This document shows positions 273 to 21,044 of a stretch of 64,000 nt of DNA, one piece after another; the stretch's first letter is position 1; each line of letters starts with the position of its first letter. The translations under genes were made by a program, and so were the position numbers. Location of the stretch: assembly GCA_044227045.1 (NCBI GenBank), contig JBGAFW010000002.1:131457-195456 (forward strand), in the 5' to 3' direction. The notes beneath the pieces are model-generated. The model did no database searches, was not told the origin of the DNA, and saw only the letters and a program-made list of their open reading frames with translations. Source of the stretch: Labilithrix sp. GTDB taxonomy: Bacteria; Myxococcota_A; Polyangia; Polyangiales; Polyangiaceae.

Positions 273-1415
273 TTAGTTCACGCCGACGCGGGGGCAGCCG
301 AAGACGAGGTCGACGTGGCCGATGTCGTCGACTTTGACGGCGTCGCAGGTGGCGGCGCAGAGGATGACTTTTTTCGGGGCGGCTTCGTTGTCGAAGTACC
401 AGCCGTTGTTGGGGGCTTTGGCGCAGCCGGCTTCGTTGCCGACGAAGACGAGCTGGGAGGTCTGGCCGCTTGCTTGGGTGTACGTGACGTTCGTTTGCTT
501 GGCGTCGATCTGGCCTGTCGGGATGTCGTAGTCGCAGGGGATCGCTTTGCGTCGGATGCCGTCGAGCGCGGCGAGGAGGGACGCTTGCGCGTTGCCGCCC
601 GTGTCGATCAGCGTCGCGGTGCCGGTGCCGCCGGCGGCGGCGATGGCGTCGAGGGCTTTGAGCTCGCCGCCGACGCCGATGACGAACGTCGTGATCGAAG
701 GTGTGCCCTTGAACGCTAGGTCGGCGACGGCGACCGCGTTGTCGAGCGTGTTCGGCAGCGCGCCCGTCGCGGAGTCGCCGGCGAGGCAGGTGTCGTCGGG
801 GAAGCCGTCGGTGGCGAGGACGAGGACGGGCTTTCGGCCTGGGGTGAGGTTGGCGACGAGGTATTTCGAGAGGCCTTGGAGCAGCGGGACCATCGGCGTT
901 CCACCGGACATCTGCTGCAGATCGAGCGCGGCGCCGATCGGGCCGGAGGCTTGGGGCTGCAAGGTGAGCGGGACGGCGGGCGCTTGGTAGTCCGGGACGC
1001 TGCACTGCTTGCGGATCGGGAAGAATTGAAGACCGACCTTCAGCTCGGCGTAGGCGGGATTCGACACGAACGTCTTCAGCGCGTCGCGGACGTTCGGCCA
1101 CTTGCTGTCGAAGTCCATCGAGAAGCTCGTGTCGAGGCCGATGACCATGTCGACCGGTTGCTTCTCGGCTTTCTTCGTCGTCGTGGCGCAGCCTTCGCCG
1201 TCGAGGTTGTTGCCACCACCGTCATCGCCGATGAAGCCGCTCGTGCTTCCGCTCGATGACGAGGTGTTGTCGGTGGCTTCCGAGTCGGAGCCGCAGGCCG
1301 CGAGGCCGAGCGCTCCCGAGGTGGCGATCGCCACGCCGGCGATCGTGAGGAGGCTTGCGATGGTCTTCGCGTGGCCCGTTGCCTGAGCCGTTGCGTAGAG
1401 GTTGCTCTGTTTCAT
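273..1415 (-). CDS. Secreted lipoprotein with von Willebrand factor A (vWA) domain
   Basis: N-terminal signal peptide with lipobox LAACGS. MIDAS-like motif VDMVIGLDTSFSM (DxSxS) in the C-terminal half. Lies directly downstream of the Cys-rich repeat gene on the same strand. Confidence 0.75.
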   Translation of the reverse strand: MKQSNLYATAQATGHAKTIASLLTIAGVAIATSGALGLAACGSDSEATDNTSSSSGSTSGFIGDDGGGNNLDGEGCATTTKKAEKQPVDMVIGLDTSFSMDFDSKWPNVRDALKTFVSNPAYAELKVGLQFFPIRKQCSVPDYQAPAVPLTLQPQASGPIGAALDLQQMSGGTPMVPLLQGLSKYLVANLTPGRKPVLVLATDGFPDDTCLAGDSATGALPNTLDNAVAVADLAFKGTPSITTFVIGVGGELKALDAIAAAGGTGTATLIDTGGNAQASLLAALDGIRRKAIPCDYDIPTGQIDAKQTNVTYTQASGQTSQLVFVGNEAGCAKAPNNGWYFDNEAAPKKVILCAATCDAVKVDDIGHVDLVFGCPRVGVN

Positions 1416-1418
1416 GGC

Positions 1419-3788
1419 TCAACCTCCACACGAGAGAAGACCGCCGCAGCGATCGGGTGGCGTGCCTGTTCGACCCTTGCACGTGTCCTTCACGCACTGG
1501 CAGGTGCCTGCCGTGCACGTGAAGTTCTCGTTGCCTGCGCCGCTCGGGCAGCCGCAGTTGATCGTGCCGCCGCAGCCGTTCGTGAGGGCGCCGCACGCGC
1601 TGCCGATGCCTTGGGCAGGGCAGACCGCGGGCGTGCAGCAGACGTTCGGGTTTGCGGAGGTGTTGCACGTCTGGCCCCCAGGGCAGTTGCACGTGATGGT
1701 GCCGCCGCAGCCGTCGTTGAACGGACCGCACTTGTCGCCCGTCGGGCTCGACGGTCCGTTCGGGACGTTGCCGCAGTTGTAAGGAGCGCCCGTGCCGTTG
1801 TTGCACTGGCAGTCGCCGATCGCGCCAGGCGTCGCGGCGTCGCACGTCTTGCCCGTCGCGCAGCCGCAGTCGATCTTGCCGCCGATGCCGTTGTCGAGCT
1901 GCGTGCCACACTTGCCGGCGTACGGAGCGGTTCCGCACGTGAGGGCCGACTTGCAGACGCCAGCGCCGTCGACGCCCGGGACGCACGTGTGGTTGGCGCA
2001 CCAGCACGTGCGGCCGCCCTTGCAAGCGCAGTCGATCGACGAGCCACAACCTGGCGTGACTGGGTTGTGCGTCGTGTTGCACTCGCCACCCTCGCCGCCG
2101 TTCAGCGTGCACGCGGCCGCGGGCGTGCAGCAGTTGTTGTTGAAGCACGTCGTGCCGACCGTGCTGCAGTTGCCGTTGCAGCTCACGGTCGTGCCCGCGG
2201 GCCTGCACGAGTTCTGAACGGGGGCGCACTGTCCGGCCGTTTGCGTGCACGTGTCGGTACGCGTGCAGCACGAGCCGACGGTGCCTGGAGGCGGCGCGGG
2301 TCCCGGTTGACCGTTCGCGTTGTTCACGCACTCCTTGCCGCCGCCGCAGCTGGCGTTGATGTTGTTGAGGCCGCAGCCGTTCGGCAGGTTCGTGCCGCAC
2401 TGGCCTTGGCTCGTGTAGGACGTGGCTGTCTTTGGCGTGCAGCACATGCCCGTCCCGGTCGTCACCGGCGGGGCAGGGGAGACGCCGCCGTCGGCCGTGC
2501 ACGTCGCGGGGTTCGTGCACGTGCAGTCGATGACGTTTTGTCCGCAGCCATTCGGCAAGTCGAGGCCGCACTTGCCGGCGTACGTCGTGTTGCACGCGAA
2601 GCCCGCGCAGCACGTGTGCGTGGTGTTGTCGCACGGGCCATTCGGGCACGTCCCGCACGTCAGCGTGCCTCCGCACGAGTCGTCGAACGTTCCGCACTGG
2701 AACGCCGCGAAGTCCGCGCACGTCTTCGGCGTGCAAGGCGGACCGCAGACGCCGTTGGCGTTGCAGACCTGACCCGTCGCGCAGTCGCCGCAGTTGATCG
2801 TCGCGCCGGTGCACGCGCTCTTGATCGTGCCGCAGTTCTTGCCTTGCGCCTTGCACTCGTCGGGCGTCGACTTCGGGTCACAACGATTGGCGATGCCGTG
2901 CACGCCGCAGCTCTCCCCGTTCTTGCAGCCGAAGCCAGCGACGGTGTCGCAGTTCACGGTGCCGCCGCAGCCGTTCGAGATGACGCCGCATTCGACGCCC
3001 TTCGTCGAGGCCTTCGCCGCGTCGCAGAGCTCCTTGGCGGTCTTCACCGCCGTGCACGAGGGAGTACCGACGGTCGGCTCGCAGGTGTGGAACACGTTGT
3101 TGCACGTCTTGCCGGCGCCGCAGCTGCCGCAATCTGTGTAGTTTGCAGGTATGTCTTCGCCACAGCCAAGCCAGGCGTGACCGCACTCGATGCCGAGGTC
3201 CTTGCACGTGACCGCTTGGCAGTCGCGACACTTGTGCGTGTCGGGATCGCATTCCTTGCCTGCGCCGCAGCCCTTCGGGTTGCCGTCGGGGCAGTCGAGG
3301 TAGTCACCGCAGCTGTTCTTGATCGTCCCGCACTCGGCGCCGAGATCGGCGCACGTTCGCTTCGGCGCGGAGCACGAGTTCGTCGCGAGATCGCAGACGC
3401 GTGGACCGGCATCGCCGCCGTCGGCGGTCGTTCCGTTCGTGCAGCCGCCGCATTGCTTGATGACGCCCGTGCAGGGATCCTTCACCGGACCGCATTTGCC
3501 GGTGCAATCGATCGCCTCGGCGTCGGGTGTCGCGTCGAGGCAGGCGACGTCCGCGCCGGCGTCGCTGATCGACTCTCCGTCAGGGAGCGGCGTGATGTTG
3601 CTGTCCGTGGTGTTCCCACCCTCCTCACCGCCGTCGTTGGTCTGCGCGGCAGGAGTGTCTTCGTCGCTGCCACATGCCGCGAGACCTCCGCCAATCGCGG
3701 CCGCGAGCAACAGGACTCCAGAGAGCACAACCCACCGAGATCTCGTCAGGGCACGAGAGTTGGAAACCTGGGTCCGGTTCATCGACAT
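1419..3788 (-). CDS. Cysteine-rich repeat lipoprotein (myxococcal Cys-rich repeat family-like)
   Basis: 789 aa; signal peptide plus lipobox LAACGS. Dozens of degenerate CG..C.DG.C / C..G..C repeats throughout, resembling the myxococcal cysteine-rich repeat. The 811-aa Ala/Arg-rich ORF on the opposite strand is a GC-frame shadow. Confidence 0.8.
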   Translation of the reverse strand: MSMNRTQVSNSRALTRSRWVVLSGVLLLAAAIGGGLAACGSDEDTPAAQTNDGGEEGGNTTDSNITPLPDGESISDAGADVACLDATPDAEAIDCTGKCGPVKDPCTGVIKQCGGCTNGTTADGGDAGPRVCDLATNSCSAPKRTCADLGAECGTIKNSCGDYLDCPDGNPKGCGAGKECDPDTHKCRDCQAVTCKDLGIECGHAWLGCGEDIPANYTDCGSCGAGKTCNNVFHTCEPTVGTPSCTAVKTAKELCDAAKASTKGVECGVISNGCGGTVNCDTVAGFGCKNGESCGVHGIANRCDPKSTPDECKAQGKNCGTIKSACTGATINCGDCATGQVCNANGVCGPPCTPKTCADFAAFQCGTFDDSCGGTLTCGTCPNGPCDNTTHTCCAGFACNTTYAGKCGLDLPNGCGQNVIDCTCTNPATCTADGGVSPAPPVTTGTGMCCTPKTATSYTSQGQCGTNLPNGCGLNNINASCGGGKECVNNANGQPGPAPPPGTVGSCCTRTDTCTQTAGQCAPVQNSCRPAGTTVSCNGNCSTVGTTCFNNNCCTPAAACTLNGGEGGECNTTHNPVTPGCGSSIDCACKGGRTCWCANHTCVPGVDGAGVCKSALTCGTAPYAGKCGTQLDNGIGGKIDCGCATGKTCDAATPGAIGDCQCNNGTGAPYNCGNVPNGPSSPTGDKCGPFNDGCGGTITCNCPGGQTCNTSANPNVCCTPAVCPAQGIGSACGALTNGCGGTINCGCPSGAGNENFTCTAGTCQCVKDTCKGRTGTPPDRCGGLLSCGG

Positions 3789-3898
3789 CGGAAACCTCCA
3801 GCCTGATCGAAACTAACTGTTCGCGTTCCCCGAACAGAAGAGATTTGGCTGGTCATGGCCCATTTCAGTAGGAGCCGAGTGCACAGGGATCACCGAAG

Positions 3899-5858: not shown

Positions 5859-8800
5859 ATGAATCCGACGATCGACATTGTGCGCGGTGAGCTCGAGCGC
5901 CTTTTCACGCTCGAAGAGATGACGAAGATGAGCGAGCGCCTCCTCGGCCTCGCGCCGGACGAGGTGGGTGGTGCAAGCGCGAAGGGGAGCTTCGCGCTCG
6001 CGTTGACCGAGCGTTGCTTCGACGGTGACCGCATCGACGCGCTCGTCGACGTGATCCTCCACTCGCGCAAAGAAGTCGACCCCCGCGTCCGCGACATCGT
6101 CGCGCTGCTCGGCAAAGAGGATCTGCCCGCAGGTCGCCAGCTCGGCGACTTCACGATCCAGAAGAAGATCGGCGAGAGCGACCTCGGCATCGTCTACCAG
6201 GCCGTGCGCAAGGACGGCGGCGCGTCGGCCACGTACTCGCTCAAGGTGCTTCGTCGCGAGGCCTCGCGCGATCGCCGCGCGGTGCATCGCTTCCTCACCG
6301 CGAATCGCCTGGTCGGCACCGTCGATCACCCCGGCCTCCCGCGGCACCTCGAGGCGGGCGAGATCGAGCCGGGCGTCTTCTACGTCGCCTACCAGTACAT
6401 CGACGCCCAGGCGCTCTCGGCACGCCTCGCGCGCACCGGGCCGGTCGCGTACGCAGAGCTCCGCCCGATCCTCCGCGGCATCCTCGAGCCCCTCGCGGCG
6501 GTCCACAAAGCGCATCTCGTCCACGGCGACCTGAAGACCGAGAACGTCCTCGTCTCCGTTCGCTCGGGCGACTCGAAGGACGTGAGCGTGTGCCTCATCG
6601 ACTTCGGCAGCGATCGCCTTCGCAACCGAAGCGTCGCCGCGAACGGTCACACCGGTCTCCTCGCGGTCTTCGGCTCGCCGAAGACGGTCGCGCCGGAGAT
6701 CGTGCGTGGTCGCTCGGCCGATCCGAAGAGTGATGTCTACGCGTTCGGCGCCGTGCTCTACGAGCTCCTCACCGGCAAGGCGGTGTTCCACGCCGAGAGC
6801 GCGACGGACGCGGCGTTTGCCCATCTCTCGCACGAGCCCGAGCCGCCGAGCCACCGCGCGCCGCGTGGGTGGGTCACGAAGGACGTCGACGCGTTCGTCC
6901 TCGCGCTCCTGCAGAAGGATCCCGCGCGCCGTCCGAAGGACGCGGGCGCCGTGCTCGACGCCCTCGACTCGATCGGGCGTGCGTCGGCCACGATGAAGGC
7001 GGCCGGCGGAATCGCGCCGGAGAAGGTCCAGCAGCTCATCGACAAGGTCCTTCAAGACCCGAGCGATCTCGAGGTCGCGCTGACGCTCGAGCACGCGGTC
7101 GATCAGGGCGCCGACGCGATCCGCGTCGGTGAGGCGTTCGCGGCGTCGGCGGCTCAGGTCCGCGGCGCGTCGGACGACGAGATCGAGACGAAGAAGACGC
7201 TGCTCTTCCGCGCGGCGCGCATCTTCGACGGCGCGGGCCGTGACAAGGCGAAGGCCGAGCAGATGTACGCTGCGATCGTCGAGCTCGATCCTCAAGACGA
7301 CATCGCGCTCGTCGCGCTCGAAGAGGCACGCAAGGCGCTCGGCAAGTACGAAGAGCTCGTCGAGATGCTCCTCGAGAAGAGCCAGTCGGCGCCCCCAGGC
7401 GAGGAGCGCGGCCGCGCGCTCGCCGAGATCGGTCGCCTCTACGCGACGGAGCTCGAGGACCCCGAGCAGGCCGCCCTCGCGTTCACGCAGGCGCTCTGCG
7501 AAGAGCCGTCGAACGACGAGTACGCCGCGGAGGTCGAGCGCCTCTGTGGATCGAACCACGCCACGTGGGGCGAGCACCTCGGCACGATCAACGAGACGCT
7601 GAAGAGCGGCGCGCTCGCGCCGGCGGACTACACCGCGCTGATGGCGCGCGCAGCCCGCTGGTACGAGACGAAGCTCGGTCGCGCCGACATGGCGCTCGCC
7701 GCCTACCAGCAGGTCCTCGCGGGAGACCCGGCGAACGAAGGCGCCGCCGAAGGCATGACGGGCATCTACCGCCGCGCGCAGCAGTGGCCCGAGCTCGTCT
7801 CGGTCCTCATGGCGCGCGCCGACGTCGCCGCGTCCGCCCCGAAGGCGCGCGACCTCCGCTCGGAGGCCGCCGAGATCCTCGAGACGCGCCTGAACGACAT
7901 GGCGCGTGCGCGCGACATCTTCATGACCGTCCTCTCGGACGATCCGGGTCACGCGAAGGCGTGCGACGCGATGGCACGCATCGCGGAGCGCACGGGTGAC
8001 TTCATGACGCTCGCGCAGGTGCTCGAGCGACGCGCCGAGGCACGCCGCGGCATGGAGAAGGCCGAGGCGCTCGCGAAGGTCGCCGAGGTCTACGAAGATC
8101 ACTTGAACGATCTCAACGAGGCGACGCGTCGCTTCGAGGCCGTCCTCGCGATCGATCCGTCGAACCTCAACGCGCTGAAGGGCCTCGACCGCATCTTCAA
8201 CCGCACCGGCAAATACCGTGAGCTCCTCGAAGTGCTCGAGCGGCAGATCGAGGTCGCCGCGACGCCTCGCCAGAAGATCAACCTCTACGAGCGCGTGGCC
8301 GGCCTTCACGACGAAGAGTTCCTCAACCACGAGGCCGCCGCCGAGGCGCTCGAGCAGATCCTCACGATCGACGGCTCGCACGACGGCGCGCTCTCGGCGC
8401 TCGCTCGTCACTACCGCGCCCTCGAGAAGTGGGAGCCGGTCGCCGCGCTCTACGAGAAGCACGCGTCGGTCACCTCCGACCCGAGCCGCCGCATCGACCT
8501 CCTCCTCGCGCGCGCACGCACGCTGGCCGAGCAGATCGGCTCGCCGGATCGCGCGACGAAGACCTACGAGCAGGTGCTCGCGATCAACCCGTCGCACGCC
8601 GGCGCGCTCGAAGCCCTCGCGCAGCTCCGCGAGATGAGCGGCGACTCGCACGCCGCGCTCAGCGCGATCGAAGCGCTCGCGATGAAGGCGGCCACGCCCG
8701 AGGCGAAATGCGAGCAGTGGATGCGCGCCGCTCGTCTCCTCGAGTCGCGTGGTGACAAGGACGGCGCGATCGAGCGCTACAAGCTGGCGCTCGACGCGAA

Positions 8801-11363
8801 CCCTCGCGATCCCGCGTCGAGCTCGGCGCTCCGCAAGGCCTATGCGAACCGCGGCGACTGGCTCAGCGTCGTCGGCCTGATCGAGCGCGAGCTCCACACC
8901 GCCGAGAGCGATCTCGCGCGCGCACGCCTCTGGGCGGAGCTCGCGAAGGTGCACCACTCGCGCCTCGTCGATCCGCAGAAGGCGGAGACGGCCGCGAAGA
9001 AGGCGGGCGAGCTCGATCCTTCGAACGCCGACGCCGCGATGGTCATGGGCGATCTCGCCTTCGAGGGCGGTCGCATGATCGAAGCGTCGAAGTACTACGA
9101 GTCGCTCGTGTCACGCACGGCCGTGCTCGACAAGGAAGACGCCACGCGCGTGCTCGTCCGCTTCATCGAGGCGTTCGGCAAGACGCAGCCGCGTCCGTCG
9201 TCGGGTCAGCTCCCGTCGGGTCCGCTCTCGCAAGCGGGCGGTCTCGGCGACAGCGGTCCGGCGAGCGGGCAATGGGTCGGGGGAGGGCCGGCGAGCCAAG
9301 GACGCATCTCGGTCGTCCCGAGCTCGCCAGGCACCGTCCCGCCGCCGCCCGTCACGAACCCGCGCATGATGGCCGCGGTCGACGCGCTGAAGCAGCTCGC
9401 GCCGCAAGACGTCGACGCGCTCGCGCGCGCGGCCAACGCCCTCTTCGAGTTCGGTGATCCGAAGAGCGCCTACAGCATGCACGAGGACCTCTTCAAGAAG
9501 TACGGGTCCGTGCTCGCAGGCTCCGAGCGCGCCGAGGCGCTCTACCACCTCGGCGAGAGCGCGCGCCGCTCGGGCCACCTCGACGTCGCGATCGCTCCGC
9601 TCAAGGAAGCGACCGACCTCGATCCGTCGAACCCACGTCCGTATCGCTCGCTCGCGAAGGTGTACGACGAGAAGGGCGAGTGGCAGAGCGCCATCGCCGT
9701 GCGTCGCTCGCGCCTCCAGCTCGCGACTGGCAACGAGCGCTTCGAGCTCCTCCTCGAGATCGGCGACGTGCTCTTCGGCAAGATGAACGACCGCACGGCG
9801 GCGTCGAAGGCGTACACGCAGGCCCTCGAAGAGAAGCCGGACGACCGCAAGCTCCTCACGAAGCTGATGCAGCTCTACTCGGAGGAGAAGGACTGGGCGA
9901 AGCTCATCGACGTCGTGCTCCGCCTCGCCGACTTCGTCGAAGATCCCAAGCAGCGTGCAAAGTACATGCATACCGCGGCGACGATCGCGGCCAAGCACAC
10001 GAACGAGATCGACAAGGCGCTCGGCTTCTACAAGCGCGCCCTCGAGCTCGAGCCATCGAACGACAAGGCGCTCAACGAGGCGATCGAGCTCTATCGCCAG
10101 AAGGGTCGCCACGACGAGGTCGAGCATCTCCTCAAGACGCAGCTCGATCAGGCGAAGGTCGCGCAGGACCGTGACAAGATCGTCCGCGTCCTCGACAAGC
10201 TCGGCGAGCTCTACCAGAAGTTCCTGAACGAGCCCGATCTCGCGGTGGACGCGTTCGAGGCCGCGCAGGCCTTCGATCCGGAGGACCGCGCCCGCGCCGA
10301 GAAGCTCGCGGAGATCTACGCGAGCGATCCGAAGCAGTACCTCGACAAGGCGGTGCAAGCGCAGGCCGTCATCCTCCGCAAGAACCCGTACCGCGTGGAG
10401 AGCTACAAGCTCCTTCGCAAGCTCTTCACCGACGCCAAGCGCGCCGACCCGGCGTGGTGCTTGTGCCAGGCGCTCGCGATCCTTCGCCTGGCCGAGCCCG
10501 ACGAGGAGCGCTTCTACCGTAAGCACCGCAGCGAGAACGCGGCGCCTGCGCAGGCCACGTTCGACGACGACTGCTGGTCGAAGGTCGCGCACTGGGATCT
10601 CGACCCGCTCCTCACGCGCATCTTCGCGATGATCCAGCCCACGATCATGCGCACGCGCACGCAGCCGATCGAGCAGCTCGGCTACGACCCGCGCTACGCG
10701 CTCGACACGTCGATGCACCCGTACCCGGTGTCGCAGACGCTCTACTACGTGCAAGGCGTCCTCGCGATGCCGCCTCCGCTGGTCTTCCAGAACCCGAACG
10801 ACCCAGGCTCACTCGGCATCGTTCACGCACGCACGCCCGCGATCGTCCTCGGTCAGGCGGCGTTCGACAACACGATCCCGAACCAGTCGCTCGCGTTCAT
10901 CGCGGGCCGTCACCTCACGTCCTTCCGCCCGGGCTTCTACGTCCGTCACCTCGTGCCCACCGGCACGGGCCTCAAGGCGTGGATCTTCGCGGCGATCAAG
11001 CTGTGCGTCCCGCAGTTCCCCGTCTCGCCCGACCTCATGGGTCAGGTGAACGAGGCGATGCAGGCGCTCGCGCAGGACTTCCAAGGCGGCGAGAAGGACA
11101 AGCTCGCGAGCGCGGTCTCGAAGCTCCTTCAGGCGGGCGGCGCGCTCGACCTCAAGAAGTGGGTCGCCGCGATCGACCTCACCGCCGATCGCGTCGGCTT
11201 CCTCCTCGCGCACGATCTCCAGCTCACCACCGAGGTCATTCGCTCGACCGAAGAGGCGACCAGCGTCGCCGTCAAAGAACGCATGAAGGACATCGTCCTC
11301 TTCTCGGTGAGCGAGGAGTACTTCGCGCTTCGCCAGAAGCTGTCGATCACCGTCGACGCGTGA
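5859..11363 (+). CDS. Serine/threonine protein kinase with very long C-terminal TPR-repeat region (1834 aa)
   Basis: Hanks kinase motifs HGDLKTENVLV, DFGS and APE, with a Lys in VYQAVRK context. About 90 aa of N-terminal non-kinase domain. More than 1000 aa of TPR-like helical repeats (A..Y..AL..DP.N...). Confidence 0.9.
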   Translation: MNPTIDIVRGELERLFTLEEMTKMSERLLGLAPDEVGGASAKGSFALALTERCFDGDRIDALVDVILHSRKEVDPRVRDIVALLGKEDLPAGRQLGDFTIQKKIGESDLGIVYQAVRKDGGASATYSLKVLRREASRDRRAVHRFLTANRLVGTVDHPGLPRHLEAGEIEPGVFYVAYQYIDAQALSARLARTGPVAYAELRPILRGILEPLAAVHKAHLVHGDLKTENVLVSVRSGDSKDVSVCLIDFGSDRLRNRSVAANGHTGLLAVFGSPKTVAPEIVRGRSADPKSDVYAFGAVLYELLTGKAVFHAESATDAAFAHLSHEPEPPSHRAPRGWVTKDVDAFVLALLQKDPARRPKDAGAVLDALDSIGRASATMKAAGGIAPEKVQQLIDKVLQDPSDLEVALTLEHAVDQGADAIRVGEAFAASAAQVRGASDDEIETKKTLLFRAARIFDGAGRDKAKAEQMYAAIVELDPQDDIALVALEEARKALGKYEELVEMLLEKSQSAPPGEERGRALAEIGRLYATELEDPEQAALAFTQALCEEPSNDEYAAEVERLCGSNHATWGEHLGTINETLKSGALAPADYTALMARAARWYETKLGRADMALAAYQQVLAGDPANEGAAEGMTGIYRRAQQWPELVSVLMARADVAASAPKARDLRSEAAEILETRLNDMARARDIFMTVLSDDPGHAKACDAMARIAERTGDFMTLAQVLERRAEARRGMEKAEALAKVAEVYEDHLNDLNEATRRFEAVLAIDPSNLNALKGLDRIFNRTGKYRELLEVLERQIEVAATPRQKINLYERVAGLHDEEFLNHEAAAEALEQILTIDGSHDGALSALARHYRALEKWEPVAALYEKHASVTSDPSRRIDLLLARARTLAEQIGSPDRATKTYEQVLAINPSHAGALEALAQLREMSGDSHAALSAIEALAMKAATPEAKCEQWMRAARLLESRGDKDGAIERYKLALDANPRDPASSSALRKAYANRGDWLSVVGLIERELHTAESDLARARLWAELAKVHHSRLVDPQKAETAAKKAGELDPSNADAAMVMGDLAFEGGRMIEASKYYESLVSRTAVLDKEDATRVLVRFIEAFGKTQPRPSSGQLPSGPLSQAGGLGDSGPASGQWVGGGPASQGRISVVPSSPGTVPPPPVTNPRMMAAVDALKQLAPQDVDALARAANALFEFGDPKSAYSMHEDLFKKYGSVLAGSERAEALYHLGESARRSGHLDVAIAPLKEATDLDPSNPRPYRSLAKVYDEKGEWQSAIAVRRSRLQLATGNERFELLLEIGDVLFGKMNDRTAASKAYTQALEEKPDDRKLLTKLMQLYSEEKDWAKLIDVVLRLADFVEDPKQRAKYMHTAATIAAKHTNEIDKALGFYKRALELEPSNDKALNEAIELYRQKGRHDEVEHLLKTQLDQAKVAQDRDKIVRVLDKLGELYQKFLNEPDLAVDAFEAAQAFDPEDRARAEKLAEIYASDPKQYLDKAVQAQAVILRKNPYRVESYKLLRKLFTDAKRADPAWCLCQALAILRLAEPDEERFYRKHRSENAAPAQATFDDDCWSKVAHWDLDPLLTRIFAMIQPTIMRTRTQPIEQLGYDPRYALDTSMHPYPVSQTLYYVQGVLAMPPPLVFQNPNDPGSLGIVHARTPAIVLGQAAFDNTIPNQSLAFIAGRHLTSFRPGFYVRHLVPTGTGLKAWIFAAIKLCVPQFPVSPDLMGQVNEAMQALAQDFQGGEKDKLASAVSKLLQAGGALDLKKWVAAIDLTADRVGFLLAHDLQLTTEVIRSTEEATSVAVKERMKDIVLFSVSEEYFALRQKLSITVDA

Positions 11364-12431
11364 TCACGAGAAGGGCCGCTCGCCGCGGTAGCGCGCGGCG
11401 ACGGCCTCTTTCAGCTCACGAACGTTGCCAGGCCAGGCGTATCCGTCGAAGCGGGGCATGAAGTCCGGCAAGAGATCGGCCGCGCCTGCGATCGGCTCCT
11501 TCTCGTAGTGCGCCGCCCAGAACGCGTGCGCGAGCACCTCGACGTCGCCCAGGCGCTCGCGAAGCGGCGGGATCGTCACGTAGCCCGGCAGCAAGCGCTG
11601 GAGGACCTCGTCGTCGAGGCGACCCTTCTCGACCTCGCGATCGAGGTTGCGTGACGTCGCGAAGACGAAGCGCGGCTGATCGGGCAGATCGAACGCGAGG
11701 ATGACGAGCTTCTGGACGAGCGACGAGAGCGACGCGATCTCGTCGATGAAGAGGGTGCCGCCTGCGGCCTTCGCCACCGCGCCGTTCTTGCCGAACAGCC
11801 GCTCTTCTTGTGCGTCGGCGGGCATGCCGTTCATCTGAACGCCCACGAAGGGTCGCAGCGCGCGTGGTCCAAGCGCGTGGAGCTCTTCGGCGAAGAGGTG
11901 CTTGCCGACGCCGGTCTCGCCTTCGACGAGGATCGGCGTGTCGCTCGAGGCGAGCCGGGCCAGCGTCGCGTACAGCCGGCGCATCACGGGGCTCTCGCCG
12001 AGCATGCGACCGAACGACATGTCTGCGTCGGCGTCCGAGCGCTCGAGCCGGCGGTCGGCGCGCCGGCGATCGCGCGTGACCGAGATGACCGTGCTCTTGC
12101 CGATCTTGATCTTCTCGCCCCCGCGGAGGATCGCCTCGCGGACGGAGACGTCGTTCACGATGGTCTCGCTCGCGCTGAGGCTCGTCACGAGGAGCTGCCC
12201 GTCCACGACGCGAAACGCGCAGTGCCGGCGCGCGAGGGTCGGGTCGGCGAGCTTCAGGTTGCAGAGCGTGCCCGTGCCGACCAGCACCGGCTCGAGCGGA
12301 TCGATCTCGAGGGAGACACCGACCTTTCGGTTCTCGACCACCGAGAGCGTGTAGGTGTCGATCAGCTCACCGCCCGTTGAGCCTCCACCCACGCGGATCG
12401 ACGATGCAGAAGGCGCTTCTTTCGGATTCAT
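11364..12431 (-). CDS. FHA-domain plus sigma-54-interaction-type AAA+ protein (EBP-like). No C-terminal HTH and degenerate GAFTGA. Start probably MNPKEAP at ~12431 (ORF extends to 12509)
   Basis: N-terminal FHA features (GR...C.L.D..VSR.H). Walker A GETGVGK, Walker B TLFIDEI, and the WPGNVREL motif close to the C-terminus. The GAFTGA position reads GKNGAVAKA. The stop codon abuts the kinase stop codon (tga/tca at 11361-11366). Confidence 0.85.
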   Translation of the reverse strand: MNPKEAPSASSIRVGGGSTGGELIDTYTLSVVENRKVGVSLEIDPLEPVLVGTGTLCNLKLADPTLARRHCAFRVVDGQLLVTSLSASETIVNDVSVREAILRGGEKIKIGKSTVISVTRDRRRADRRLERSDADADMSFGRMLGESPVMRRLYATLARLASSDTPILVEGETGVGKHLFAEELHALGPRALRPFVGVQMNGMPADAQEERLFGKNGAVAKAAGGTLFIDEIASLSSLVQKLVILAFDLPDQPRFVFATSRNLDREVEKGRLDDEVLQRLLPGYVTIPPLRERLGDVEVLAHAFWAAHYEKEPIAGAADLLPDFMPRFDGYAWPGNVRELKEAVAARYRGERPFS

Positions 12432-12446
12432 GGCACCGGGGCTGCG
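12431..12446 (+). promoter_or_regulatory. Candidate sigma-54 (-24/-12) promoter element TGGCAC-N5-CTGC
   Basis: Sequence tggcaccggggctgcg has GG and GC spaced as in the TGGCACG-N4-TTGCW consensus. It lies ~200 bp upstream of the + strand gene at 12647 and overlaps the start codon of the divergent FHA-AAA+ gene. Confidence 0.25.
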
Positions 12447-12646
12447 ATTCGTAGCATGACGATGCCCACCCTGGGACTGAGTCCCGTGGGCAGCAAGTCC
12501 AAGCGCCAAGACGAGATGGACGACCGAGATACCAGGTGTTGCGCAATTCGAGCGACTCCAAGCGGTGATGGCCAGGAGACGCGGAAAAGATCCGTCTTCT
12601 TATTTTTGTCTGAAGAGCTGAGCCATGTCATCCGTCCGAGTGACCG

Positions 12647-13294
12647 ATGATGAAGCGCCCACTCTCATCGATTCCCGCTCCCGAAAGTGCCCCCGCGAGC
12701 CGAGCCCGGCTCCACGACCTCTCGAGCGAGATCGTCGAGATCCGCCGGGCGATGCCGTCGTCCTCCGTCGCCGTCGCGAGCGATGCGCTCGACGACGAGA
12801 TCGTGCCGTCCACGATGCCGACCGGTGGGTGGGCACGGATGGCGGGTGTGCTGACCGAGATGGCGCTTCACCATGTCGTCGTCGGAGAGCGTGATGCGGC
12901 GCGGCGCGCAGCCGTCGACGCGCTCCTCCTCATCGACATGATCGAAGAAGAGGTCGCGCGCGCCGAGCTCTGTCTTACGCTCGGCGAGGTCCTCCTCGAG
13001 ATCCACGAGGCGCATCGCGCGCGGGAGCGCTTCGAGGCCGCGATCGCGACGTTCGACGAGCGAAAGCTCCTCGCGTCGGCGGCGCAGGCGCGCGTCGGGC
13101 TCGCGCGCGCGCTCACGATGCTGAAGGATCCGGTCGCGCGCGCCATCCTCGAAGACGCCGGGACGGCGTTCGAGGAGCTCGGCAACGACGCCGCCGCCCG
13201 CGCGATCGACGTCGAGCTTCGCGAGGTCGAAGCGGAGCTCGAAGAGTCGCCGAGGTCGTTCCAAGCGACATCCGCGACCTACCGTCGCCGCTGA
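12647..13294 (+). CDS. Hypothetical protein (helical, TPR-like?)
   Basis: 215-aa ORF with GC-typical codon usage; no recognisable motif. Confidence 0.45.
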   Translation: MMKRPLSSIPAPESAPASRARLHDLSSEIVEIRRAMPSSSVAVASDALDDEIVPSTMPTGGWARMAGVLTEMALHHVVVGERDAARRAAVDALLLIDMIEEEVARAELCLTLGEVLLEIHEAHRARERFEAAIATFDERKLLASAAQARVGLARALTMLKDPVARAILEDAGTAFEELGNDAAARAIDVELREVEAELEESPRSFQATSATYRRR

Positions 13295-13322
13295 CGTATC
13301 GCCAAGCTCCGCTAACGCGCCG

Positions 13323-13721
13323 TCAGCACTTGTACGCGGTGACCCGGCACGCGCCGTCGCGGCACACCGGCGCATGCTCACCGTCTTTGCACGGCTTGAA
13401 CTTCTTGCCGCGCATGTTCTTCGGTCGCGCGATCGGCTGCCGGTCTTCGCCGACCCAGCAGTCCTCCACCGAGGTGCACGCGATGTCCGGCGCCGCGGAC
13501 GCGGACGCTACCGGCGGAGGAGGAGGCGAGGGCGGAGCGGACGCCGGCGTCATGGGCGCTGCCGCTGCGGACGCCGGCGCGATCGGAGGCACGTCGAGGA
13601 TCGCCGCCGACGCCGAGGGCGCGGGCGTGCTCTGCGGCGCGCGCGACGACGAGCAAGCGCCCGCCATCGCGATCGCGACGAGCGCGAGGCCCGCGCCGAG
13701 GATTCTTCGCGCCGCAGGCAT
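13323..13721 (-). CDS. Small secreted lipoprotein with Cys-rich C-terminal module (start at MPAARR)
   Basis: Signal peptide with lipobox (IAMAGACSSS), a Pro/Ala-rich linker, and C-terminal DCWVGED...CKDGEHAPVCRDGACRVTAYKC. The last gene of the fadL-lipase operon. Confidence 0.55.
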   Translation of the reverse strand: MPAARRILGAGLALVAIAMAGACSSSRAPQSTPAPSASAAILDVPPIAPASAAAAPMTPASAPPSPPPPPVASASAAPDIACTSVEDCWVGEDRQPIARPKNMRGKKFKPCKDGEHAPVCRDGACRVTAYKC

Positions 13722-13726
13722 CGCGA

Positions 13727-15256
13727 TCAGTCGTTCGGAGGCGGCGTCGAGCAGGTCGTCGCGACGGCCGTCTCGTTCGCGGGGCATGCCCCGGGCGCTG
13801 CGCCGCCGAGCGTGAGGCTCGCGATCCAATCGCCGACGCGCTCACCCTGGTAGTCGATGATCGATCCGTGGCCGGCCTCGGGCTCGACGCAGACGGTGAG
13901 GTTGACCGCGTCCGACTTGAGTCGCTCGAGCGCGCACGCCATGCGACCCGGATCGATCGTCGTGTCCTTGCCTCCGTAGAGGAGATAGATCGGGATCTTC
14001 GCGGCGCTGCCCGTGAGGTGCGGGCGGTCGGCGGAGTAACGCGCGATCCACTTCTTGCAGACCTCGTCGGTGGCGGGGCATGCCTGCCCGAGCGCCGAGG
14101 GGTTGCCGATCGACGTCGGGAAGGTGTCGACGAAGAGCTCGTACGCGAACTTCGTGCTCGCCGCGAGATCGGTGAACTCGCCCCAGCACTGCTCGTCGAC
14201 GAACTTCTTCACGACAGCCTGCTTGTCGGCCTTGAACAGCTTGATGCCTTCGCCCGGGCCATCGAGCAGCTCGGCCTGCGTGTAGTGGTACCAAACGCTG
14301 ATGCCGCTCGGGTAATCGAGCTTCGCGATCGTGTAGTCGCGATCGTTGGCGATGCCAGGCTCGAGCAATGCGCCCCACGAGCGCTGGCTGAGCCAGAGCG
14401 GCGCGTACGTCGCGACGCCGACCACGGTGCCCTGCGCGCCGTAGGTGTCGACGAGCGAGAGCGCGGCGAGCGCGCTGTGACCACCTTGCGAGTGCCCGAC
14501 GATGACCGTCTTGTCGTCGAGCTGCGGGTAGAGCTGCTTCAGCGCGCGGCTGCCGTCGAGCGTGGACTTGCCGACGTCGGCGGCTTGCGCGTACGCGCTC
14601 GGCGGGTTGTTCGCGGCTCCGAAATTCGCGTAGCCGGCGAGGTCGGGGACGATCACGGCGTAGCCGTTGCCGACGAGCGTGTACGTCAAGCGGTACGCGT
14701 CGTCGTTGATGCCGCTGAGGGCCGGATCGAATTTCGACACCGCGCAGCGAGCGGCCTGTCCTCGGCTGCCGCGCGCCGCGACGACGATCGGGAGCTTCTC
14801 TGCGCGCTGCACGAGCGGGACGTAGACGAGCGCGCTCGAGTAGCCGGGCGTGTTCTTCGTGTCACCGCGCGTCGTGCGGTAGACGACTTTGTACACGTGC
14901 GCGCCGCTCGTGAGCGGCTTGCCCTTGTAGCCGATGCGCGTGAGCTCGGCTTGCATCGCCTCCTTCGTGAGGTCCGCGCCTTTGCTGCACTTCAGGATCT
15001 TGCCGCGCGAGGCGTCGTCGGTGGGCACGGCGCCAGGGTCGCCGTAGATCGCGGCGTCGGCGTCGGCGCAGGCGACGGCCGGATCACCAAGCGGCGCGGC
15101 CCCCGTCGGGCTGTCGCTGCCGGTCCCCGTGTCGGTGCCGCCGTCGGTGCCCGGCGTCGTGTTGTTCGTGCCGTCGTCGTCGTCTCCACAACCTGGAGCG
15201 AACGCCGCGAGCGAAGCCACCGCGAGAGCAGAAGCGATCCCAAGAATGCGTTTCAT
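13727..15256 (-). CDS. Secreted lipase/esterase lipoprotein (alpha/beta hydrolase, secretory-lipase-like)
   Basis: Signal peptide with lipobox (FAPGCGDD). Nucleophile elbow GHSQGG. 509 aa. Confidence 0.8.
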   Translation of the reverse strand: MKRILGIASALAVASLAAFAPGCGDDDDGTNNTTPGTDGGTDTGTGSDSPTGAAPLGDPAVACADADAAIYGDPGAVPTDDASRGKILKCSKGADLTKEAMQAELTRIGYKGKPLTSGAHVYKVVYRTTRGDTKNTPGYSSALVYVPLVQRAEKLPIVVAARGSRGQAARCAVSKFDPALSGINDDAYRLTYTLVGNGYAVIVPDLAGYANFGAANNPPSAYAQAADVGKSTLDGSRALKQLYPQLDDKTVIVGHSQGGHSALAALSLVDTYGAQGTVVGVATYAPLWLSQRSWGALLEPGIANDRDYTIAKLDYPSGISVWYHYTQAELLDGPGEGIKLFKADKQAVVKKFVDEQCWGEFTDLAASTKFAYELFVDTFPTSIGNPSALGQACPATDEVCKKWIARYSADRPHLTGSAAKIPIYLLYGGKDTTIDPGRMACALERLKSDAVNLTVCVEPEAGHGSIIDYQGERVGDWIASLTLGGAAPGACPANETAVATTCSTPPPND

Positions 15257-15336
15257 GGCAATACCTCGTAAAGAGCCTGCAGAATTTTGCAGGTGTCGCG
15301 ATCGGTCGGTCGGTCGAAGACCAGCGATCGAGCCGC

Positions 15337-16776
15337 TCAGAAAGTATAGGCGACGTTCAGGTTCAGGAAGCCAATCTGCGAGGTGTACTTGCCGTCGGAG
15401 CTTGGCGATTGCGACGGCTTGGCGAGCTCGTCAAAGCGGTTCGCGCCCTTGGTGTCGACCGGGAGAAAGTAAATGTGGGTGTAGTTCGCGCCCAGCGCGA
15501 GGTGCTTCGACACGTTGTAGCGCGCGCCGAGGTTGAAATAGAGCCGGAAGCTGTCGATCGTCGACGCGTCGATCTGCGCCTTCGGCACAGCCGATGTCGT
15601 GAAGGCCAAGCTTCCGCCAACCTCGAGCTGCTCGTTCAGGAAGTACCCGACGCCGGCGCGGTAACCCCAGGCGTTGTTCCAGTTGCGGGGGATGTTGATG
15701 ACGACGTCGGTGTTCCCGTTGAGCGCGCTCCCGTCGTCGTTGACGGCGCAGTTGGCGCCCTTGACGACCACGCACTGGCGCTCGAACACGCTCCACCGAA
15801 CGAACTCGCCGTCGGTCCGCACCTCCAGCTTGTCGTTCATGAGCCGGAAGGCCGCACCAAGCCGAATGATGTCGGGGTAGGCCTGGAGGAAGTCGATGTC
15901 TTGCGTGACGTCGTTCGTGCCCGAGCGACCTTCGAGCTTTCCCGTCATGCGTGTGGTCCCGAAGCCCGGCTGGCTGAGATACGCCGCGCCGACGCGCACA
16001 CCGCCGTCTTTCGTCTGCCAGTACACACCGCCGGTCGCTTGAAGGTTGAAGCCGGTGCCGTCGAGGTACGAGCGACCTTCCTTGAGCGAGCCGTTGGCGA
16101 ACTCGATCTCGTCGCTGTCGTCGGCGGTTCGCGCGCGGACGGTCGCGACGTGATGGATGACTGGGCTGATGCTCGCGCCGAGGGAGAGGCCGGTGTCTCC
16201 AACGACGTACGCGAACGCGAAGGTGTTGTAGACGGCGAGGATCTGACCGCTGATGTTGTGCCAGCGCTGAACGCCGTCCGACGAGCCGATCGCCTCGGGG
16301 ATGCCGCGCTTGCGGTCCCAGTTCGCGAGACCACCGAACGGGATGTACACGGCGTATCCGGCGCGAAGGCTCTTCGTCCCGAAGTCGGTGTTCACCCCTG
16401 CAAAGGGCAACGCAAGGAGGTTCAGGAGGTTCGCGTCACCAGTGTTTGCTTTGACGTACTTCTCATCCGCAAGCAGGCGTTCTCGCGCGCCTGGTGTGGG
16501 GGAGAGCGCGTCGGCTGTGCGCTTGTAATGAGCCTGACGGAGGGCGAGGGAAAGGTCGCCGGTGATCGTCGTCCCGGTGGTCCCTCCGAGCGCGGCCGGG
16601 TTGAAGTAGACCGCATACCCGTTCGGCATCATCGGCGCGCCTTGATCGCCGCCAAACCGAGCCGTCAGGTAGCCGCTCGCTTCGGCGTCACCATGCGCGA
16701 GCATGGCGCCACCAAAGGCGAGGCTAGGAACGAGAAAGCGAAAGAGCTTGAGGGAAAGGTTCGTCGAAGTGGGCAT
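15337..16776 (-). CDS. FadL/TodX-family outer-membrane long-chain fatty acid / hydrophobic compound transporter (start MPTSTN)
   Basis: Signal peptide, N-terminal hatch motif YFNPAAL (NPA), alternating beta-strand pattern, C-terminal ...NVAYTF ending in Phe. Confidence 0.75.
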   Translation of the reverse strand: MPTSTNLSLKLFRFLVPSLAFGGAMLAHGDAEASGYLTARFGGDQGAPMMPNGYAVYFNPAALGGTTGTTITGDLSLALRQAHYKRTADALSPTPGARERLLADEKYVKANTGDANLLNLLALPFAGVNTDFGTKSLRAGYAVYIPFGGLANWDRKRGIPEAIGSSDGVQRWHNISGQILAVYNTFAFAYVVGDTGLSLGASISPVIHHVATVRARTADDSDEIEFANGSLKEGRSYLDGTGFNLQATGGVYWQTKDGGVRVGAAYLSQPGFGTTRMTGKLEGRSGTNDVTQDIDFLQAYPDIIRLGAAFRLMNDKLEVRTDGEFVRWSVFERQCVVVKGANCAVNDDGSALNGNTDVVINIPRNWNNAWGYRAGVGYFLNEQLEVGGSLAFTTSAVPKAQIDASTIDSFRLYFNLGARYNVSKHLALGANYTHIYFLPVDTKGANRFDELAKPSQSPSSDGKYTSQIGFLNLNVAYTF

Positions 16777-17046
16777 CGATGGCGGGCCGAGACTACAACG
16801 CGAACGCTGGCGAGCGCACGCAAAACACCGCTCTCCAGACGGTCTCAACGAGCGGCCTGTCGTCCTGCGTCAAACGATGCCGCTCGCGCTCGTGACGCAT
16901 GCGACTTCCCTTCGTTGGCATGCGGGACTGGTGCAAACCCCAACACGGTGGAACGCGAGGCGGCCCCGCCTCCGCCGGAGCGTCTCCTCGCCAACTCCGC
17001 GCAGTGCTTGCTTGCGTCTTTTCGGACCGCTGTCTATGCCTACGCT

Positions 17047-17805
17047 ATGGCTTTTGCACTTCGCCGGTCCAAGCAACACACGCTCGTTCGCGGCATCTTG
17101 ATCACGGTCGCTCTGGGCAGCTTAGGCCTGATCTCGCTCGCCACGGGCAGCACGGCGTGCATCCCGGATCCGAAGGGCGACTTCCAAGACTTCAAGGACC
17201 GCACAGCAAACCTCGGCACCGCGCCGACGGACACCGCGTCACCGAGCGACGCGGCGCCGATCGACTCGAAGCCACCGGAGACCGCAGTCGAAGGTCTGTA
17301 CGCCGGCATCTGCGTGACCTCGCTCGCGGCGGGCGATCCGGAACAAGCGCTGCGCTTCTACACCGAGACCAAGTACACGCCCAACAGCGCCAATCCAAAC
17401 ACGGGAACTCTCATCCTCACCGTGACACCGCTGGTTGGCTGGGACGTCGCCACGGGCGCCTACCTGGTGCCAACGACGTTCTCGAAGTCTCAGACGCGAG
17501 GCAACCCGATCGCCGTACCGGAGATCAACGTGGAGGCGACGGGTCGCTTCACGGCAAAGCTCGGGACCGTGAACTTGGCTGCTGAAGCCAACAGCGTGAG
17601 CGGCCGGACCGCGGTCATCGAGAACACCGTCTTGGACGGTCTCTTCAGCGCTGGCGATCGGTTCTGCTCAACCCTTGCAGGTGAGCTGACCGTGCCCTAT
17701 CGCTCCCCTTTCGATCCGAAGCAGAACACATGCCTCTTCGTTCGCGCGAAGGAAGGGGATGCCTTCCCAAAGATTCCTGCGAACGAATTCACCTGTAAGT
17801 TTTGA
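17047..17805 (+). CDS. Hypothetical lipoprotein
   Basis: MAFALRR... signal peptide with lipobox LATGSTAC. The 5' 1.6 kb of the ORF-track entry 15409..17805 is antisense to fadL and was rejected. Confidence 0.6.
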   Translation: MAFALRRSKQHTLVRGILITVALGSLGLISLATGSTACIPDPKGDFQDFKDRTANLGTAPTDTASPSDAAPIDSKPPETAVEGLYAGICVTSLAAGDPEQALRFYTETKYTPNSANPNTGTLILTVTPLVGWDVATGAYLVPTTFSKSQTRGNPIAVPEINVEATGRFTAKLGTVNLAAEANSVSGRTAVIENTVLDGLFSAGDRFCSTLAGELTVPYRSPFDPKQNTCLFVRAKEGDAFPKIPANEFTCKF

Positions 17806-17910
17806 CGATCATGGTTCGAGCGGATGCAGCCGCGAACGGCGGCATGTTGTGTCTATGCCGCGTCCGCGCGCAGAGCGGGAACCTCTCGGTTCAGAAGACG
17901 ACTGACGACT

Positions 17911-19335: not shown

Positions 19336-19396
19336 TCGTCACCTCCTCCCATAGAAGACAGAACGAGTCGTGCGTTTGCCGAGGTTGGAGTCACAA

Positions 19397-19429
19397 CAAG
19401 AAAACGGCGTCGCTCGTGAGAGCGACGCC
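19397..19429 (-). terminator. Rho-independent terminator downstream of the 19459..20769 gene
   Basis: Perfect 10-bp GC stem ggcgtcgctc/gagcgacgcc with a 4-nt loop, followed on the minus strand by GTTTTCTTG. Confidence 0.5.
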
Positions 19430-19458
19430 GTGTTCCATGGCTTTACGATGTCGTCAGA

Positions 19459-20769: not shown

Positions 20770-21044
20770 CGCTCTCCTTTAGTTTCGTAAGCCCGAACGA
20801 ATACTGCCCTCGGGCTGCGCCCTCGGTGCAAAACGCATAGGAAACGTAGAGAGAACCAAGCATCATCGCAAGGAAAGACTGGCGTCTGTGATTGCTGGCA
20901 ACAGGCTCACACCGGGGCGTCCTTGGACCACGATCGCGATGTCATAGGTCAGAGGTGCCGCCTTGGCCGCCTATCGAAGTGGGCTCGCGAGCGTCGAGCG
21001 CGTCGCATCTTGCACCTGCAGGCATCCTCTGAGATGAACCTTAC

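Follow-up and report, generated by a model that had tools for sequence, protein, structure and literature searches.

In a 64-kb stretch of DNA from Labilithrix sp. (64,000 nucleotides of contig JBGAFW010000002.1, GC about 67%; the whole stretch is referred to below as the window), a giant gene for a Ser/Thr-kinase-like protein with tetratricopeptide repeats (TPR) and a smaller gene for a protein with FHA and AAA+ domains converge so closely that their stop codons touch. A preliminary description of the locus, made from the letters alone, had correctly read the two open reading frames (ORFs), of which the larger encodes 1834 amino acids (aa), and the adjacency of their stops (tga/tca), and had proposed that the two products form a signalling module. 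The analysis reported here indicates that the small gene is very probably a truncated relative of the bacterial enhancer-binding proteins (bEBPs, or EBPs) that has lost the elements for contacting sigma-54 and for binding DNA, and that its position beside the kinase gene appears to be an accident of genome rearrangement rather than a sign of a conserved pair. The features at the centre of the locus are:

5859–11363, plus strand: gene for the Ser/Thr-kinase-like/TPR giant protein, 1834 aa (ORF; GC content at third codon positions, GC3, 0.91; orthologues across Polyangia).
11364–12431, minus strand: FHA-AAA+ gene, 355 aa from ATG, without a DNA-binding domain (Pfam; same ATG called in three metagenome contigs; GC3 0.86).
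11361–11366, no strand assigned: the two touching stop codons, tga for the kinase gene and tca (TGA) for the FHA-AAA+ gene (direct sequence reading; probable rearrangement breakpoint).
12060–12365, minus strand: FHA-fold domain, aa 23–124, with an apparently dismantled phospho-threonine (pThr) pocket (Pfam FHA; beta-sandwich in the AlphaFold2, AF2, model).
11388–12014, minus strand: bEBP-type AAA+ domain and lid, aa 140–348, with the ATPase motifs kept (Sigma54_activat, 9.3e-22; AAA_lid_14).
11781–11786, minus strand: site of the 12-residue deletion of loop L1 (GAFTGA), N216/G217 (alignments to NifA, LuxO and relatives).
11673–11678, minus strand: site of the deletion, of ~12 residues, of loop L2, Q252/P253 (alignments to NifA, LuxO and relatives).

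The letters at 11355–11369 (gac gcg tga tca cga) place the two stops in direct contact. For the small gene, an alternative ORF of 381 aa beginning at a TTG (11364–12509, minus strand) can be drawn, but the ATG at 12431 is the more likely start and was adopted because three metagenome contigs with a 98%-identical gene were all called from that ATG; no clear Shine-Dalgarno sequence precedes it. Pfam recognized in the product an FHA domain (PF00498; 31.1 bits, cut-off 20.7), Sigma54_activat (PF00158), Sigma54_activ_2 and AAA_lid_14 (PF25601), all consistent with the two domains already named in the preliminary description, and NCBIfam returned sub-threshold matches alone, to the NtrC, NorR, NifA, PspF and similar models. 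An AF2 model built on a 72-sequence alignment (pLDDT 89, pTM 0.83) predicts an FHA beta-sandwich, with strands over aa 23–124 at a pLDDT of ~90, and after it an AAA+ core of alpha/beta type with its lid. The solved folds closest to this model in Foldseek were the AAA+ domains of NtrC1, NtrX, PspF, LuxO and VpsR, with NtrC1 and PspF on top.

The AAA+ domain lacks two loops by which EBPs work. In HMMER alignments against the solved EBPs NifA and LuxO, 12 residues at L1 and about 12 at L2 (the pre-sensor I loop, ERVGG...) are missing as clean gaps. The same shortening is evident in the Sigma54_activat match, in which 137 protein residues span 161 profile positions, and in the motif spacings, which are 49 from Walker A to Walker B and 61 from Walker B to PPLR, against 61 and 73, respectively, in canonical relatives. 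Contact with sigma-54 region I and with the −12 DNA is made by L1 and L2 (review PMC7175178). Loss of a functional GAFTGA loop had been noticed before and stands, although the loop does not read GKNGAVAKA in degenerate form, as then stated, but is removed by a clean 12-residue deletion. The L2 deletion, as well as the loss of pThr-signature residues from the FHA domain, had been missed. The ATPase motifs are present, including the three that had been recognized from the outset: Walker A (GETGVGK, with K177), Walker B (FIDE, with D230/E231), the R279 finger, the sensor II residue R338 and WPGNVREL.

The DNA-binding end is likewise missing, as the preliminary description had stated. No HTH_8 match was found by Pfam in the small protein, which stops 15 residues past WPGNVREL and about 5 codons beyond the AAA+ lid; from the conserved GE, five codons remain before the TGA that abuts the kinase stop. 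A helix-turn-helix (HTH) hidden by a frameshift was rejected, as tblastn with the HTH tails of nine relatives against the whole window gave noise, and the three frames translated downstream of the FHA-AAA+ stop, which run antisense to the kinase gene, were noise-like with no HTH remnant. With neither contact loop present and nothing of the C-terminal domain left, the protein is predicted to be incapable of canonical sigma-54 activation and of binding DNA through an HTH, and on both of these points the original expectation was borne out.

The relatives of the protein indicate when these losses occurred. A search of 5.8 billion proteins returned one near-identical cluster (P0001, 98%), the next matches being no more than 47% identical, and an exhaustive phmmer search of 1.84 billion representatives placed the next best at 43–45% identity and gave 279 representatives with E<=1e-30. 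Nearly all relatives are FHA-type EBPs of 400–460 aa from Polyangia/Myxococcota sources; canonical spacing and GAFTGA were found in 86 of the top 120, and a shortened L1 in about 27. Exactly the two deletions of the window protein recur in a clade made up of P0002–P0017, P0241 and others, and among the top 150 representatives there were at least 25 clusters (at 50% identity) that are doubly loop-less and at least 17 that lack L1 alone. Every parsed doubly loop-less member carries a Fis-type HTH tail (ERRYV...RYFQLLRAR) of 61–100 aa where the window lineage has 15 aa. Because both deletions are shared by these distant clusters, at least 25 in number, of which all that were parsed have the HTH, and the window lineage is the exception, the loop deletions appear to be old and shared, and the loss of the HTH private to the window lineage. 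In a neighbour-joining tree that lineage forms the longest branch, next to the doubly loop-less clade, with 43–48% identity to clade members, which are 50–64% identical among themselves.

Doubly loop-less proteins are apparently confined to Polyangia-type Myxococcota, and no description of an FHA-AAA+-HTH clade of this kind was found in the searched literature. Their genes lie in unrelated neighbourhoods, none near the giant kinase. At one locus (L006, 10001–12600; also L007) two doubly loop-less paralogues of 425 and 424 aa, both with intact FHA signatures, are convergent and 47 bp apart, an arrangement that hints at a possible paired action of these proteins. At another (L008, 7923–12795) an apparent operon consists of a Pkinase gene (446 aa), a gene for a 245-aa unknown protein, the FHA-AAA+-HTH gene P0012 and then a gene for an FG-GAP protein.

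The FHA domain has diverged at the positions on which pThr recognition depends. In Rad53 FHA1 the pThr phosphate is held by R70, S85, N86 and T106 (PMC2615620). We compared the equivalents of Rad53 FHA1 R70, S85, T106 and N107, in the pattern GR...SxxH...TNG. The FHA domain of a canonical relative aligns in HMMER to FhaA and GarA of Mycobacterium tuberculosis with the signatures G(R)...VSRRH...STNGT. Among 70 relatives, conservation was 70/70 for S67, N88 and D84, 59/70 for T87 and 65/70 for G89. The window protein and P0001, by contrast with these counts, carry S67A, N88S, D84S/N (D84S in the window), T87A and G89E, and the window domain reads G52-T53, A67-R-R-H70 and S86-A87-S88-E89, without the expected pThr-contact residues. 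The pThr pocket thus seems to have been dismantled specifically in the window lineage. With S67, T87 and N88 replaced, the main premise for a reader of marks set by the neighbouring kinase is gone, and the proposal that the FHA domain is a pThr reader and a direct partner of that kinase is left with a weak foundation.

Despite these losses, the gene does not have the appearance of a relic. Substitutions were counted against contig L001, which is 96.7% identical to the window in nucleotides over 7.8 kb. The whole FHA-AAA+ gene has 24 synonymous and 6 non-synonymous differences (ratio of non-synonymous to synonymous rates, dN/dS, 0.08; neutrality P about 8e-10). These are unevenly distributed: the N-terminus and FHA part (aa 1–125) has 7 synonymous and 5 non-synonymous (neutrality P 0.02), and the linker and AAA+ part (aa 126–355) has 17 and 1 (neutrality P about 1e-9); aa 65–84, inside the FHA domain, account for five of the six amino-acid differences between the protein and its L001 sister. 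For neighbouring genes in the same comparison, the counts were 20 synonymous and 4 non-synonymous for a 215-aa protein (dN/dS 0.06), 29 and 5 for an alpha/beta-hydrolase (dN/dS 0.05), and 64 and 4 for the 3′ 1063 codons of the kinase gene (dN/dS 0.02). The 355-codon ORF is unbroken in four independent assemblies. Given the retained motifs for ATP binding and hydrolysis and the strong purifying selection on the AAA+ core, selection probably maintains the protein, mainly on account of its ATPase core, and a pure pseudogene is unlikely.

The evidence that the pairing with the kinase is not conserved comes from synteny and from the following features around the junction:

11364–12602, no strand assigned: lineage-specific segment of ~1.24 kb, the gene plus 171 bp upstream (absent in sibling Labilithrix genomes).
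12602–12631, minus strand: sigma-70-like promoter match ATGACA-18-AAAAAT, the sole one upstream of the FHA-AAA+ gene (a consensus match only, with no evidence of function).
12647–13294, plus strand: divergent gene for a 215-aa protein of unknown function (no Pfam match; homologues 69–70% identical in L014 and L015, which are without the FHA-AAA+ gene).

With the C-terminal domain of the kinase protein used as a probe, relatives were found to be encoded in 357 species genomes, from which 80 listed loci were examined for synteny together with flanks of as much as 10 kb. All 80 belong to Labilithrix, Polyangiaceae or other Myxococcota-type genomes, the closest being Labilithrix metagenome-assembled genomes (MAGs) at 90–93% identity. 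In tblastn with the FHA-AAA+ protein, none of the 80 loci had a homologue within 10 kb of the kinase gene; absence of synteny in related genomes, an outcome that the preliminary description had itself named as refuting its proposal, was thus observed. A convergent gene of 356 aa in one locus (L011) was considered as a counterpart and rejected, as it had no Pfam match and tblastn with the window protein found nothing in that locus. In the MAG GL85_DN_concoct_37 the giant kinase and a loop-less relative are on separate contigs. What does follow the kinase gene in about 60 of the 80 loci, directly downstream, is a homologue of the sulfatase encoded at 21045–22517 of the window, where about 9.7 kb (11364–21044) separates the kinase gene from a sulfatase/HAGH/FemAB-like block, the genes of which come right after the kinase in those ~60 loci. 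In the Labilithrix group, window included, an extra block encoding the 215-aa protein, an alpha/beta-hydrolase, a FadL-like outer-membrane protein and others lies between kinase and sulfatase; it is common to Labilithrix-type genomes only, has no FHA-AAA+ gene in the siblings, and differs between species at its kinase-proximal end.

The borders of the segment are sharp. Homology by blastn with five sibling Labilithrix loci ends at 11359–11365, that is, at the kinase stop codon; with L014 and L015 it stops at 11363 and restarts at 12603–12604, and for this reason the segment 11364–12602 is regarded as lineage-specific. Other genes occupy the slot in the siblings. In L014 and L015 a different minus-strand gene stands there (~11123–12000 and ~7300–8250, respectively). 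Its product is a secreted protein that begins with a signal-like segment and has a hydrophobic-basic tail at the C-terminus, where a hydrophobic stretch rich in Gly/Ala precedes RRARRRPNA; by eye this is like a sorting tail of the MYXO-CTERM type. In L090 a small homologue of the 215-aa gene comes almost directly after the kinase gene, and in L016 and L083 the kinase gene is followed by a minus-strand gene of roughly 500 aa as the first ORF of high GC3. In L026 (Labilithrix sp. STL-MYX21) an alpha/beta-hydrolase gene converges on the orthologous kinase gene at 11003–11009 with stops 1 bp apart. Such recurrent tight convergent packing with unrelated genes is expected if deletions in the slot may reach the edge of the strongly selected kinase gene but may not enter it. 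An origin of the 1.24-kb segment as a mobile element was rejected, since no noteworthy direct or inverted repeats flank it. No terminator-like site was found at the junction, the sole one lying at 12581–12595, and, given this and the abutting stops, the convergent transcripts probably overlap if both genes are transcribed, which makes the earlier claim of an overlap a reasonable one; the geometry is not specific to this pair. Because no pairing was seen in any of the 80 loci, homology breaks at the stop and other genes fill the slot in siblings, the adjacency of kinase and FHA-AAA+ genes is best taken as a rearrangement accident, and the claim that they constitute a signalling module is not supported.

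The giant kinase gene itself is widely conserved, and two of its domains were delimited:

6153–6938, plus strand: kinase domain, aa 99–360 (Pfam Pkinase, 1.6e-30).
10359–11360, plus strand: C-terminal domain, aa 1501–1834, of the kinase protein (conserved).

Between them, over aa ~450–1520, Pfam placed many TPR families. Aligned with PknB, the kinase domain has, of the features of a Hanks-type Ser/Thr kinase, the Lys (YSLK), HGD (HGDLKTEN, a non-RD form), DFG and APE; the position of the alphaC Glu (E59 in PknB) is Ala, and the Gly-loop reads GESDLG, not GxGxxG. These last two departures leave the catalytic competence of the protein uncertain; the residues are identical in the L014 and L015 orthologues. 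The C-terminal 334 aa gave no matches in sequence searches against Pfam and PDB and are strongly conserved, with 50–86% identity among relatives. Stand-alone '500-aa' versions of this domain on long contigs were rejected as pieces of the giant gene produced by apparent frameshifts in long-read assemblies. In L010 and L012, which are long-read metagenome contigs, several gene calls divide up the giant kinase gene, and the nuo genes next to it are broken in the same way, which makes the database seem to contain 'TPR proteins' of ~500 aa with the kinase C-terminal domain.

Elsewhere in the window, at 1371–3806, two long antisense ORFs of 811 aa (plus strand) and 789 aa (minus strand) overlap, neither with a Pfam match. 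The GC3 of 0.86 against 0.53 points to the minus-strand ORF (1419–3788) as the real gene; its predicted product is a Cys-rich secreted protein with a signal-peptide-like N-terminus.

What the FHA-AAA+ gene is can be stated with high confidence; what its product does is less certain. We put at about even the full reading, that of a lineage-specific, 3′-truncated offshoot of a loop-less branch of FHA-type EBPs whose product acts through protein–protein contacts. A branch of myxobacterial FHA-type EBPs lost L1 and L2 long ago while keeping its Fis-type HTH, and its members resemble the atypical, sigma-54-independent EBPs; one such loop-less gene lies in the hyper-variable slot after the conserved giant kinase gene, and according to this reading its HTH-coding end would have been lost at the rearrangement junction. 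The abutting stops would then mark the scar of a deletion or rearrangement that selection on the kinase gene kept in bounds, and would imply no functional coupling. The product would be a free AAA+ subunit, not bound to DNA, that reads no pThr mark and makes no contact with sigma-54. As to the particular mechanism, we tentatively suggest, as a possibility below even chances, co-assembly with paralogous EBP-like regulators: the AAA+ core may join or disturb the oligomers of full-length paralogues and shift their oligomerisation or output, in a role like that of FleT or of a dominant-negative partner. Precedents for this mechanism are the EBPs without a DNA-binding domain, mutants of Caulobacter NtrC, the EBPs of Myxococcus xanthus, which are reported to act as hetero-oligomers (Volz et al. 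2012), and the adjacent loop-less paralogues of L006/L007. EBPs lacking that domain are known in FlgR, CtcC and FleT, the last being without both the R and D domains (PMC7175178), and in Caulobacter, whose NtrC is GAFTGA-less, mutants of this protein's HTH become active at sigma-54-dependent (flagellar) genes that are not native to it (PMC12421884). The idea of a modulator or anti-activator in the preliminary description thus remains plausible, although not in the form of a phospho-dependent partner of the giant kinase. A still broader proposal, that the doubly loop-less FHA-AAA+-HTH proteins are undescribed, Ser/Thr-kinase-controlled and sigma-54-independent regulators whose oligomers the window member tunes or poisons in trans, in the manner of FleT, is speculative and more improbable than not by a wide measure.

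Several observations weigh against this reading. Across the family, K, Q or T already stands where the GR motif would have its Arg, which is missing from all 70 relatives, so that phosphopeptide binding may be unconventional family-wide and the residue losses in the window protein may not abolish pThr binding. R273, the equivalent of PspF R162, is replaced by Asp, and ring formation and ATP hydrolysis are only predicted. The estimate of selection comprises 30 substitutions between two very close lineages. The full-length paralogue that the mechanism calls for is putative, the analysis having covered 64 kb of the genome. Finally, because P0012 stands in an apparent operon with a 446-aa Ser/Thr kinase, kinase control is plausible for the loop-less family at large, through a different kinase.

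Of the other explanations, a dedicated phospho-dependent module, in which the adjacent FHA domain docks on a pThr that the giant kinase has made on itself or on a target, is highly improbable. It draws on the adjacency of the genes and the preservation of this arrangement in four assemblies of one species, on the Lys, HGD, DFG and APE of the kinase and on the operonic kinase of one loop-less relative; FHA-type EBPs of myxobacteria are also reportedly (in the account of Jelsbak et al. in 2005) generally assumed to be under Ser/Thr kinase control. Synteny is, however, absent in the 80 orthologous kinase loci, those at 90–93% identity included, the slot is hyper-variable with homology breaking at the stop codon, FHA-AAA+ relatives are not beside the giant kinase, the contact residues S67, T87 and N88 are replaced, and constraint on the protein is weakest in its FHA part (7 synonymous and 5 non-synonymous differences). 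A reading in which the zero spacing itself is regulatory, the overlapping 3′ ends allowing control by antisense or transcriptional interference between kinase gene and small gene, is consistent with the touching stops and the absence of an intrinsic-terminator-like site at the junction, but in L026 an unrelated gene is packed just as tightly (1 bp) and the neighbours differ in other siblings; lacking conservation, such control seems very doubtful.

Equally doubtful is that the gene is a non-functional remnant, decaying after deletion of its HTH-coding end, even though the truncation falls exactly at the rearrangement junction, otherwise invariant FHA residues are lost, the branch is the longest in the family tree and confined to one lineage, and no clear Shine-Dalgarno sequence precedes the ATG. 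These features have to be set against the intact 355 codons in four independent assemblies, the dN/dS of 0.08 (24 versus 6, P about 8e-10; 17 versus 1 in the AAA+ part), the retention of every ATPase motif and a GC3 of 0.86, which is usual for coding sequence in the window. An autonomous new function, with the FHA-like sandwich binding a non-phosphorylated ligand or protein and the loop-less ring acting on a client or as an ATP-dependent switch unrelated to transcription factors, would account for the strong constraint on an AAA+ core with intact motifs, for the concentration of fast evolution in the FHA binding-loop region and for the confident inter-domain model (pTM 0.83). We nevertheless regard it as rather unlikely: there is no conserved partner gene, as the divergent 215-aa neighbour occurs in siblings without the FHA-AAA+ gene; the L1/L2 deletion removes the pore-side loops by which AAA+ proteins of this clade engage substrate; and the architecture, found in one lineage only, has no comparative support.

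The kinase and the FHA-AAA+ protein should not be passed on as a functional pair. If the interpretation of a free AAA+ subunit is true, the gene would be a case of natural recycling of an EBP-type ATPase after the loss of sigma-54 contact, DNA binding and phospho-reading, a state so far approached only by engineered mutants such as the HTH mutants of Caulobacter NtrC. The most useful by-products of the analysis are a giant kinase that is conserved widely and ends in an uncharacterised domain, and a mis-annotated clade: sizeable and from Polyangia, its members are annotated as 'sigma-54-interacting regulators', almost certainly wrongly, with both contact loops deleted and the HTH kept.

Among known systems, the window protein has the clade-6 AAA+ domain of a bEBP and lacks L1/GAFTGA, L2 and the C-terminal HTH, of which the HTH is absent in a minority of true bEBPs. 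EBP-class AAA+ domains without a functional GAFTGA are known from atypical regulators. Escherichia coli TyrR, Rhodobacter capsulatus HupR, M. xanthus HsfA, Pseudomonas putida PhhR, Brucella NtrX and Vibrio cholerae VpsR are EBP-like, GAFTGA-less and sigma-54-independent (PMC6158489), and Caulobacter NtrC is an EBP without a functional loop (PMC12421884); NtrX and VpsR are also among the best structural matches to the window protein. These regulators have an HTH and act at sigma-70 promoters, mostly with receiver or ACT/PAS N-termini, whereas the window protein has no HTH, an FHA N-terminus and, unlike them, clean deletions of both L1 and L2. PexR (PMC12754779) was considered as a related noncanonical myxobacterial EBP and rejected, being a GAF-type, GAFTGA-containing sigma-54 activator. 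Helicobacter pylori FlgR, Chlamydia CtcC and R. sphaeroides FleT share with the window protein the lack of a DNA-binding domain at the C-terminus, and bEBPs of this kind act from solution or with a partner (PMC7175178). They retain GAFTGA and activate sigma-54, in contrast to the window protein, which is predicted to be unable to contact sigma-54 by the known route. FleT, for its part, works with FleQ. Nearest of all are the FHA-domain EBPs of myxobacteria, from Polyangia metagenomes, which have the same N-terminal FHA and EBP-type AAA+ domains; canonical members possess GAFTGA, L2, the HTH and the SRRH...STNGT signature, all four of which the window protein lacks. The doubly loop-less FHA-AAA+-HTH clade has the same domain order and both loop deletions and differs in retaining the Fis-type HTH and the FHA signature residues, and the window protein is, as far as its sequence tells, best described as a truncated member of this loop-less FHA-type clade.

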